A DNA stretch of 21,203 bases, from contig JBHLPL010000024.1 in NCBI GenBank assembly GCA_048939465.1, positions 1 to 21,203 on the forward strand, read 5' to 3'. Made by a program: the position numbers and the translations under genes. The stretch is from Promethearchaeota archaeon. GTDB lineage: Archaea; Asgardarchaeota; Odinarchaeia; Odinarchaeales; JBHLKK01. Within the stretch, counting starts at the first letter, position 1. Each line of letters opens with the position of its first letter. Below the pieces are notes generated by a model. That model did not search any database and was not told the origin of the DNA. It saw only the letters and a list, made by a program, of their open reading frames with translations. This document shows positions 16,937 to 18,158 of the stretch, piece after piece.

Positions 16937-17857
16937 TTAAGTTCCGCCAAGGATTAATGCAAGCAGCGCCATACGAACAAGAACACCATTCCAAGGTTGT
17001 TTGAAGTAGACTGCGCCTGAGATTCCATCCACCTCGGCATCGATCTCGTCTACTCTGGGGAGCGGATGCATTATAATGACGTCACTTCTCCCGTTCTTCA
17101 AGAGATCCAAATCAATCTTATACGAGCCCCTAACCTTTTCATATTCTGTTGCGTCTGGAATTCTCTCCCTCTGGATGCGCGTAATGTATATCACATCAAC
17201 ATCTTCTATAACCTTCTCAATACGTTCCACTTCCGTTACTTTGACACCCTGTTTTTTGACATCGTCAATTATCTCAGATCTCATTCTCAGTAGCGGGGGT
17301 GAGACCAGGAATAGATTCACATCATACATCGATAAGGCGTAGGACAATGAATGGACAGTACGACCGTACTTTAGGTCACCTACTAGCGCTATACTCAGTC
17401 CATCAATGTCCTTTTTTTCTCTTCGAATCGTCAACAAATCAAGCAATGCTTGAGTGGGATGCTCTTCCGACCCAGAACCGGCATTGATGATCGGAGTCTG
17501 AGAAAGCTCGGATGCCAGTCTTGCTGCCCCCTCTAACGGATGCCTGAGTACAATTACATCTGCATAACTCTCAACGACTCTAATGGTATCACTGAGATTT
17601 TCTCCTTTAACGGCAGACGTTGTACCAGGCTCTGCAAAACCAACTACCCCTCCTCCAAGTCTTTTCATGGCGGTCTCAAAGGAAATCCGAGTTCTGGTGC
17701 TGGGCTCATAGAATAAAGTTGCCAAAATCCTTCCTCTAAGAAGGTCTGATCCCTTCCTAGCAAATTCTTCCATCTTTTCTGCAACATCAAGAATGTGCTC
17801 CACCTCTTCGCGGGTGAAATCGTGAATTGATACCACACTGCGTCCCTCAAAACTCAC
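16937..17857 (-). CDS. pyrB: Aspartate carbamoyltransferase catalytic chain
   Basis: FYEPSTRT, KGE.L.DT, INAG.G..EHPTQ.LLD, GDLKYGRTVHSL and MHPLPR. Start is GTG 17857 or ATG 17866; the longer ORF-track start runs through the promoter. Confidence 0.96.
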   Translation of the reverse strand: MSFEGRSVVSIHDFTREEVEHILDVAEKMEEFARKGSDLLRGRILATLFYEPSTRTRISFETAMKRLGGGVVGFAEPGTTSAVKGENLSDTIRVVESYADVIVLRHPLEGAARLASELSQTPIINAGSGSEEHPTQALLDLLTIRREKKDIDGLSIALVGDLKYGRTVHSLSYALSMYDVNLFLVSPPLLRMRSEIIDDVKKQGVKVTEVERIEKVIEDVDVIYITRIQRERIPDATEYEKVRGSYKIDLDLLKNGRSDVIIMHPLPRVDEIDAEVDGISGAVYFKQPWNGVLVRMALLALILGGT

Positions 17858-17901
17858 CGCACACATCTCCCACCATTTTAGAAAATAATTCCTATATGTT
17901 A

Positions 17902-17948
17902 CCTTTAACCTTTTCCAAAAGCCCTCAGCCATAAGCTTTTTCAAATAA
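17902..17948. promoter_or_regulatory. Back-to-back promoters for pyrB (minus) and tRNA-His (plus)
   Basis: Minus-strand GGAAAAGG-TTAAAGG (17916-17902) is a good BRE-TATA. Plus-strand ATAAG-CTTTTTCAAATAA (17931-17948) is a weaker TATA-like element upstream of the tRNA. Confidence 0.5.
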
Positions 17949-17970
17949 TTCATCTATATTCCAACAGAGT

Positions 17971-18140
17971 GGCCGGGATCAAGATGGCCGGGATACGCGA
18001 AAAAAAGCGTCCCGAAGGGGTAGGGGTAGTCCTGGCGGCCTGTGGACCCCGACATATAAAGGGGGACAGACAGACGCCATGTAAACCACTACGTGGTGCC
18101 ATAACCGCAGGCGGGGGTTCGAATCCCCCTCCCGGCCCCA
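17971..18140 (+). tRNA. tRNA-His(GTG) with three introns (8/9: 17995-18016; 37/38: 18046-18071; 39/40: 18074-18104) and a possible fourth (5/6: 17977-17991); G-1 and CCA encoded
   Basis: After removal the 76-nt mature sequence is G-GCCGGGA-TG-GGGTAGGGGTAGTCCT-G-GCGGC-CTGTGGA-GCCGC-AGGC-GGGGG-TTCGAAT-CCCCC-TCCCGGC-C-CCA. It has a perfect 7-bp acceptor stem plus G-1:C73 (the His hallmark) and perfect anticodon and T stems. The gene starts at 17986 instead if the 5' duplication is only leader. Confidence 0.93.
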
Positions 18141-18153
18141 CTTATACTTGGGC

Positions 18154-18158
18154 TTTTT
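18154..18158 (+). terminator. Candidate oligo(T) terminator after tRNA-His
   Basis: TTTTT run 13 nt after the CCA; archaeal intrinsic terminators are T-tracts. Confidence 0.35.

Follow-up and report, generated by a model that had tools for sequence, protein, structure and literature searches.

A histidine tRNA gene with three, perhaps four, short introns in an Odinarchaeia-related archaeon

Introduction

Does the segment 17971-18140 (plus strand) of the stretch of archaeal DNA analysed here (21,203 nt, hereafter the window) carry a working histidine tRNA gene, and if it does, how is a locus of 170 nt reduced to a tRNA of 76 nt? In an initial annotation, made from the DNA letters, the locus was read as a tRNA-His gene interrupted by at least three introns of the BHB type, at tRNA positions 8/9, 37/38 and 39/40, each with its own 4-bp central helix and an internal hairpin; removal of the three introns was said to leave the 76-nt tRNA. 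A broad-specificity splicing endonuclease was postulated for the lineage, and standard tRNA finders were expected to miss the gene.

We conclude that the locus is, as read from its sequence, a genuine tRNA-His(GUG) gene with three, perhaps four, short introns. The explanation that best accounts for the data as a whole, and which we consider very probable, is that of a functional and apparently sole tRNA-His(GUG) gene of an uncultured Asgard archaeon, from whose transcript three BHB introns and one 15-nt unit of a duplicated 5' end would be removed.

Results

The joined exons form a tRNA-His

When copy 2 of the 5' end, the D-arm exon, the micro-exon and the 3' exon (17986-17994, 18017-18045, 18072-18073 and 18105-18140; Table 1) were joined in silico, a 76-mer was obtained, which ARAGORN called as tRNA-His(gtg) with a G-1:C73 pair. 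The gene itself encodes both partners of this pair, G-1 (17986, or 17971 if copy 1 is taken) and C73 (18137), and the pair is invariant in all seven genomes compared. The anticodon, GUG, is at 18042-18044, within a 7-nt loop (CUGUGGA) on a 5-bp stem (GCGGC/GCCGC). The T arm has a GGGGG/CCCCC stem and a UUCGAAU loop, and the terminal CCA is encoded, as it is in many other tRNA genes of the genome. The locus is flanked by a divergent minus-strand ORF (16937-17953) and by downstream ORFs; the oligo-T run is 14 nt past the CCA.

The three pairs of intron boundaries given in the initial annotation proved correct: they are required by the cloverleaf, and BHB cores are found at them. The arithmetic did not hold. 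Removal of the three introns leaves 170 - 22 - 26 - 31 = 91 nt rather than 76 nt, and the product called by ARAGORN is reached only if one further unit of 15 nt, belonging to the duplicate at the 5' end, is dropped.

The 2-nt micro-exon is required for the C31:G39 pair and for the 7-nt anticodon loop. Two models without it were tried and rejected. A single intron 18046-18102 leaves a C31-A39 mismatch and has no central helix, and a single intron 18046-18104 results in a 4-bp stem and a shifted loop, with two of four central pairs.

Table 1. Features of the tRNA-His locus, in window coordinates. H, central helix; arrows in the bulges mark the predicted cuts.
Feature	Position	Strand	Basis
Archaeal BRE/TATA-like promoter element (AAGCTT + TTTCAAATAA)	17933-17948	+	conserved in congeners and sister genus
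Copy 1 of the tRNA 5' end (G-1 to U8), GGCCGGGAT	17971-17979	+	direct repeat of 17986-17994; invariant
Candidate fourth intron, 15 nt, position 5/6, mini-BHB	17977-17991	+	H GGCC/GGCC, 4/4; bulges GG↓G, GG↓G
Copy 2 of the tRNA 5' end (G-1 to U8)	17986-17994	+	contiguous with 8/9 intron; invariant
Intron 8/9, 22 nt	17995-18016	+	H CGGG/CCCG, 4/4 Watson-Crick; bulges AU↓A, AA↓G
Exon: D arm, 5' anticodon stem, anticodon loop to G37	18017-18045	+	invariant in relatives; ARAGORN cloverleaf
Intron 37/38 (canonical position), 26 nt	18046-18071	+	H CUGU/ACAG, 4/4; bulges GG↓A, AC↓A
Micro-exon AG (A38, G39), 2 nt	18072-18073	+	invariant; separates 37/38 and 39/40 introns
Intron 39/40, 31 nt	18074-18104	+	H 1/4 in precursor, 4/4 once 18046-18071 is removed
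Exon: 3' anticodon stem, variable loop, T arm, acceptor 3' strand, C73, CCA	18105-18140	+	invariant
Oligo-T run (TTTTT), likely archaeal transcription terminator	18154-18158	+	sequence reading only

Standard tRNA searches miss the gene

As had been expected, the gene escaped standard finders. ARAGORN reported no tRNA anywhere in the window. With the Rfam model RF00005 at the gathering threshold the tRNA-His locus was missed, the sole match in the window being a tRNA at 15-120; when the Rfam search was relaxed to E ≤ 10, the locus gave a T-arm fragment and spurious families only.

The genome is a 1.96-Mb MAG, 91% complete, in 152 contigs. A search for a second tRNA-His by exon blastn, ARAGORN and RF00005 found none in this 91%-complete assembly; such a gene could be unassembled, or be hidden equally well. 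About 25 tRNA genes are detectable in the MAG by ARAGORN or Rfam, most of them with a length of 90-140 nt, and several isotypes are absent from this set; many hidden multi-intron tRNA genes are likely to be present.

Two further loci were noted. The RF00005 match at 15-120 of the window (plus strand, 106 nt, 57 bits) is a second interrupted tRNA, which ARAGORN misses in the window; by eye, it appears to be a class II tRNA-Leu(CAG) that carries additional sequence around the variable arm. On another contig, a 183-nt candidate tRNA (C66:10529-10711, minus strand) has an intact T arm, a 7-bp acceptor stem and CCA, and was called by neither ARAGORN nor RF00005; it is probably another multi-intron gene.

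Three BHB introns, two of which must be removed in order

Intron boundaries were scored for three elements: a central helix (H) of 4 bp that stops 2 nt short of each cut, 3-nt bulges, and flanking helices h and h'. A complete (4/4) central helix is found at ca. 2% of random boundary pairs in the window, and at 0.7-6% after intron shuffling. Of the structural claims made for the introns, that of an own 4-bp central helix held for the 8/9 and 37/38 introns (four of four pairs each) and failed for the 39/40 intron, where a single pair of the four is available in the unspliced RNA. An inner helix adjoins the core in the 37/38 intron and, once that intron has been removed, in the 39/40 intron; in the 8/9 intron a single unpaired U (18010) separates the hairpin (CGC/GCG) from the core. 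By strict adjacency the 8/9 intron has therefore h' = 0 and belongs to the relaxed class.

The loop of the 8/9 intron varies in relatives (at 17999, 18001 and 18002, and by indels), and its core is invariant. The local MFE at this site favours pairing of A7 with U18010, with a bulge of 2 nt as the result. An alternative register for this intron (H GGGA/UCCC) was rejected: it leaves two surplus nucleotides after U8, and conflicts with the intron-free sequence of the sister genus (see below). The 37/38 intron has a 4-bp inner helix (CCCC/GGGG); when its boundaries were moved by one nucleotide, the central helix was lost.

The 39/40 intron acquires a BHB only in the intermediate from which 18046-18071 has been removed. 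In that RNA, the central helix is GUGG/CCAU (four of four pairs), the bulges are AG↓A and AA↓C, the inner helix is 9 bp long (4 bp in both congeners), and there is no outer helix (h = 0), a relaxed motif of the HBh' type. The local MFE of the intermediate forms this motif. Since the central helix uses anticodon-loop nucleotides 34-37, which adjoin the bulge only after excision of the 37/38 intron, that intron must leave before the 39/40 intron can be spliced. A different hairpin within this intron, ACCAC/GUGGU, to which an A-U to G-C change had drawn attention, was rejected because other variants disrupt it; the 9-bp helix beside the core is the better model.

In the energy model, BHB conformers are not the MFE; their cost ranges from +3.6 to +10.7 kcal/mol.

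Exons are invariant and stems covary

The set of homologues comprised three congeneric genomes and four genomes of a sister genus. The locus occurs in runs from mangrove, sediment and soil metagenomes; two run searches listed no RNA run that contains it. The two congeners of our genome carry the locus at 93% identity. In the three-way alignment, all substitutions and indels are in introns or in the spacer of the duplicate, and the exons are identical. When contigs from four metagenome runs were added to the three genomes, 18 variable sites were counted among 85 intron and spacer positions, and none among the 76 exon nucleotides or in copy 1 (by our own estimate, the probability of this distribution under uniformity is ca. 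4e-6). Three changes fall in predicted helices (17969 G>A, 18047 C>U and 18067 C>U), and all of them preserve pairing, the latter two as G-U. The BHB cores are unchanged in both congeners. In contigs of the four metagenome DNA runs, no copy of the locus without an intron or without the duplicate was found. A scan of metagenomes with a 30-nt degenerate exon pattern gave no match, and one with a shorter exon pattern gave 10 contigs, all of them chance matches in unrelated sequence. Given the base rate at boundaries and the distribution of variable sites, chance is excluded as the source of the sequence pattern.

The tRNA-His sequences of the sister genus (L005-L008) are also 76 nt long when spliced, and collinear with the product described here. 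All 22 stem pairs are standard in each of the seven spliced sequences, and four of them (7:66, 28:42, 49:65 and 50:64) have changed on both sides between the genera. From the compensatory pairs and the invariant exons we conclude that the gene is under purifying selection as a tRNA. The claim of a tRNA-His with at least three BHB-type introns is thus borne out by invariant exons, variable introns, conserved cores and covariation with the sister genus.

The same data bear on the possibility that the locus is a pseudogene in decay, or resembles a tRNA by chance, with the real tRNA-His elsewhere in the genome or unassembled. The MAG is incomplete and fragmented into 152 contigs, and a three-intron tRNA-His of Atabeyarchaeia-1 is flagged 'possible pseudo' by tRNAscan-SE in Supplementary Data 4 of PMC11291895. 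Against this, the exons are 100% conserved in three species whose loci are 93% identical, and in several metagenomes, in contrast to the diverging introns and flanks; the stem changes relative to the sister genus are compensatory; a promoter, an encoded CCA and a T-run are present at the locus; and no second tRNA-His turned up in the 91%-complete assembly. We regard a pseudogene as very improbable.

The intron content of the two genera differs. Genes of the sister genus share the promoter element, the 76-nt architecture and a homologous 37/38 intron (21 nt there), which is the sole intron common to both genera; they lack the 8/9 intron and the 5' duplicate. U8 is directly followed there by GGGG, which is the junction predicted for the 8/9 intron. 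The sister genus has an intron of its own in the T arm (53/54, 22-24 nt, with a perfect hBHBh' motif), absent from the present locus. As here, a second intron abuts the 37/38 intron in the sister genus, and would need ordered or nested removal. The 5' cut of this mini-intron, which is 13-14 nt long, falls on the 3' cut of the 37/38 intron; the 3' helix strand of the 37/38 intron serves a second time in the central helix of the mini-intron (GCAG/CUGC or CUGU).

A tandem duplicate of the 5' end

The additional 15 nt are due to the segment 17971-17994, which is a tandem duplicate, GGCCGGGAT-CAAGAT-GGCCGGGAT. The promoter motif AAG[CT]TTAAA precedes nine other tRNA genes of the genome (for example at C79:10439, C118:5588 and C66:10830), mostly 39-40 nt (range 34-59) before +1. 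At the tRNA-His locus it lies upstream by 39 nt if measured to G+1 of copy 1, and by 54 nt for copy 2. This spacing places copy 1 where the mature 5' end normally falls, and copy 1 is thus almost certainly transcribed, probably from a start a few nucleotides upstream of 17971.

In the predicted MFE of the precursor, copy 1 forms the acceptor stem, and it beats copy 2 for the acceptor strand by ca. 7 kcal/mol in the energy model. C3-G6 of copy 2 (17989-17992) supply the central helix of the 8/9 BHB, the modelled cost of which drops from +9.7 to +3.6 kcal/mol when copy 1 occupies the acceptor stem. The duplicate may be kept for a function in which copy 1 occupies the acceptor stem and leaves copy 2 to present the BHB of the 8/9 intron.

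Three routes of removal were considered, and all of them yield the identical 76-nt tRNA with encoded G-1 and CCA. The route that we tentatively place first is excision by EndA of a fourth, mini-intron at position 5/6. It fits best because the two 9-mers and the AU at 17984-85 are invariant, and the variation in the duplicate region (three substitution sites and two indels) is confined to the 4-nt loop 17980-83. The mini-BHB would be flanked by an h' of two base pairs (AU/AU) closing a loop of 3-5 nt (CAAG here), and by an h in which two outer pairs are formed with the leader. This geometry recurs in both congeners (G001 and G002); it is not independent evidence, since duplication of a segment that starts with the palindrome GGCC yields it automatically. 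When the 3' acceptor strand is present, the mini-BHB conformer is ca. 16 kcal/mol above the MFE.

This energetic penalty favours a second route, which is simplest and which we consider quite possible, if not the first choice: the gene has three introns only, copy 2 is the true 5' end, and 17971-17985 is a leader that RNase P would trim between 17985 and 17986, in which case the duplicate would be a relic, neutral or mildly deleterious. The genome has an RNase P RNA (178.6 bits), and copy 2 directly adjoins the 8/9 intron's best BHB. Variation would be expected all along a free leader, however, and copy 1 and the AU at 17984-85 never vary. Moreover, copy 1 is at a promoter distance typical of mature 5' ends, and its advantage in modelled pairing with the acceptor strand should lead to frequent cuts at the wrong copy.

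If, alternatively, copy 1 is the true exon, the first of three introns would be 37 nt long (17980-18016), and copy 2 would be intronic. CGGG of copy 1 can form an equal 4/4 helix with CCCG at 18011-14 (bulges AU↓C and AA↓G), copy 1 is at the ancestral promoter distance, and 37 + 26 + 31 = 94 nt covers the entire excess. Yet there is no inner helix beside the bulge, where A17981:U18010 is the sole possible pair, and the loop closed by the helix would be 31 nt long. Copy 2, being nearer, is a competitor for CCCG and is favoured by stacking on the CGC/GCG hairpin; an intronic copy 2 would also be free to vary, yet it is invariant. We regard this route as distinctly unlikely.

The mini-intron reading, which we prefer, raises the idea that the 15-nt duplicate is a young BHB intron, born by tandem exon duplication, of which EndA and RtcB remove one repeat unit. 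The palindrome GGCC would let the two copies pair as a central helix, and the same three nucleotides after each would serve as bulges, so that the duplication would have been spliceable, hence tolerated, from its first appearance. We consider this origin unlikely on present evidence. Direct repeats of at least 7 nt inside other tRNA loci of the genome are not above chance (6 seen versus ca. 8 expected by estimate), so tandem duplication is not shown to be general.

Splicing enzymes and predicted processing

Two matches to EndA (PF01974) were found in the genome, and both paralogues are present in all seven genomes of the order. The catalytic alpha subunit (contig C90) matches chain B of the Aeropyrum pernix enzyme (3P1Z) with E=1.5e-44. 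It has equivalents of Y125, H133, K164, R157 and W183 (VY, DHS and RKK are conserved in the alignment to 3P1Z_B), and its CSL/L1 loop has K-P-K opposite K44-P-R46 of A. pernix, the motif that confers broad specificity on that enzyme (Hirata et al. 2011, PMC3241643). The second paralogue (C139:31376-31636, minus strand; L022) is closest to M. jannaschii EndA (1A79, E=1.6e-28), and its catalytic His is replaced by Ala. [quoted passage not shown] The broad-specificity endonuclease that had been postulated is therefore encoded, with the Tyr/His/Lys triad and the Lys44 equivalent in one subunit and a His-less paralogue as the other. It resembles A. pernix EndA (PDB 3P1Z/3AJV; PMC3241643) in having the triad and the CSL loop in the alpha subunit; unlike in A. 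pernix, the partner is full-length and similar to the M. jannaschii alpha4 enzyme rather than a short crenarchaeal beta subunit. An (alpha-beta)2 EndA with a CSL loop has already been reported in Asgard archaea (Kaneta et al. 2018).

For RtcB (PF01139), three matches on two contigs were obtained. One homologue is in a 973-aa open frame (C31:2961-5708, minus strand), in which the Pfam match is in two distant pieces, an arrangement that suggests an intein or another insertion. A second RtcB, on contig C78, is uninterrupted.

From the gene structure, the conservation pattern, the BHB geometry and the presence of these enzymes, all of which were established here, we infer every step of processing in vivo as follows. 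A precursor of ca. 175 nt would have to lose 94 nt. EndA would cut the 3-nt bulges of the 8/9, 37/38 and 39/40 introns after the second nucleotide, the 37/38 intron leaving first and the 39/40 intron second, at junctions 2 nt apart, and RtcB would rejoin the exons.

Discussion

The locus supplies a histidine tRNA gene that ARAGORN and Rfam miss in this genome. A similar gap may be seen in published data: the table for a complete Freyarchaeia genome lists 38 tRNAs and no tRNA-His (PMC11291895, Supplementary Data 4), which is consistent with a missed multi-intron gene, and other Asgard annotations probably share this blind spot. The locus is also a compact substrate for studies of EndA specificity, since canonical, acceptor/D-junction and removal-dependent introns are combined in one RNA, together with junctions 2 nt apart and a possible minimal intron of 14-15 nt.

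The duplicate suggests a testable idea on the origin of such introns. If true, the young-intron reading would give a concrete route by which archaeal tRNA introns arrive. A 2026 Asgard census preprint (10.64898/2026.10.13.758758) leaves the route of arrival open and, in the part available, describes no test of tandem duplication; it reports that recurrence of intron sequences between tRNA genes is rare in Asgard archaea.

The statement in the initial annotation that multi-intron tRNAs have up to three introns and are described mainly in Thermoproteales is outdated. Asgard tRNA genes with up to four introns, including a tRNA-His of Atabeyarchaeia-1 with three, are listed in Supplementary Data 4 of PMC11291895, and up to five introns per gene are given in the census preprint, according to which tRNAscan-SE misses ca. 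30% of introns. In PMC11291895, 92-95% of the tRNA genes in three complete Asgard genomes are described as intron-bearing (Valentin-Alvarado et al. 2024). Closely spaced introns, one of which has to go before the BHB of the next can form, were already noted in the tRNAscan-SE 2.0 paper. Since up to four or five introns per gene and ordered removal have been published for Asgard archaea, the tRNA-His gene described here is not a new kind of gene.

The Asgard systems described in PMC11291895 and 10.64898/2026.10.13.758758 resemble the present one in that most genes are interrupted, introns are multiple and have non-canonical BHBs, EndA has two paralogues, and D-arm and 5' introns are missed by standard annotation. 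They differ in that the genome studied here belongs to another order, and its sister genus is labelled Odinarchaeota/Odinarchaeia; the word 'Odin' is absent from the main text of the preprint. The available sections of the two sources make no mention of intron positions 8/9 and 39/40, of a 2-nt exon or of a 5' tandem duplicate. Heavy interruption of tRNA genes, described for Atabeyarchaeia, Freyarchaeia and Jordiarchaeia, is now extended to an Odinarchaeia-related order.

The other known setting of such genes is the Thermoproteales, with 71 introns in 46 tRNA genes of Pyrobaculum calidifontis (Sugahara et al. 2008, as cited in PMC8450103). Multi-intron tRNAs of this group likewise contain up to three BHB or relaxed-BHB introns at non-canonical positions and are accompanied by an (alpha-beta)2 EndA with a CSL loop; Thermoproteales are hyperthermophilic crenarchaea, whereas the lineage described here is an Asgard lineage of sediment and soil.
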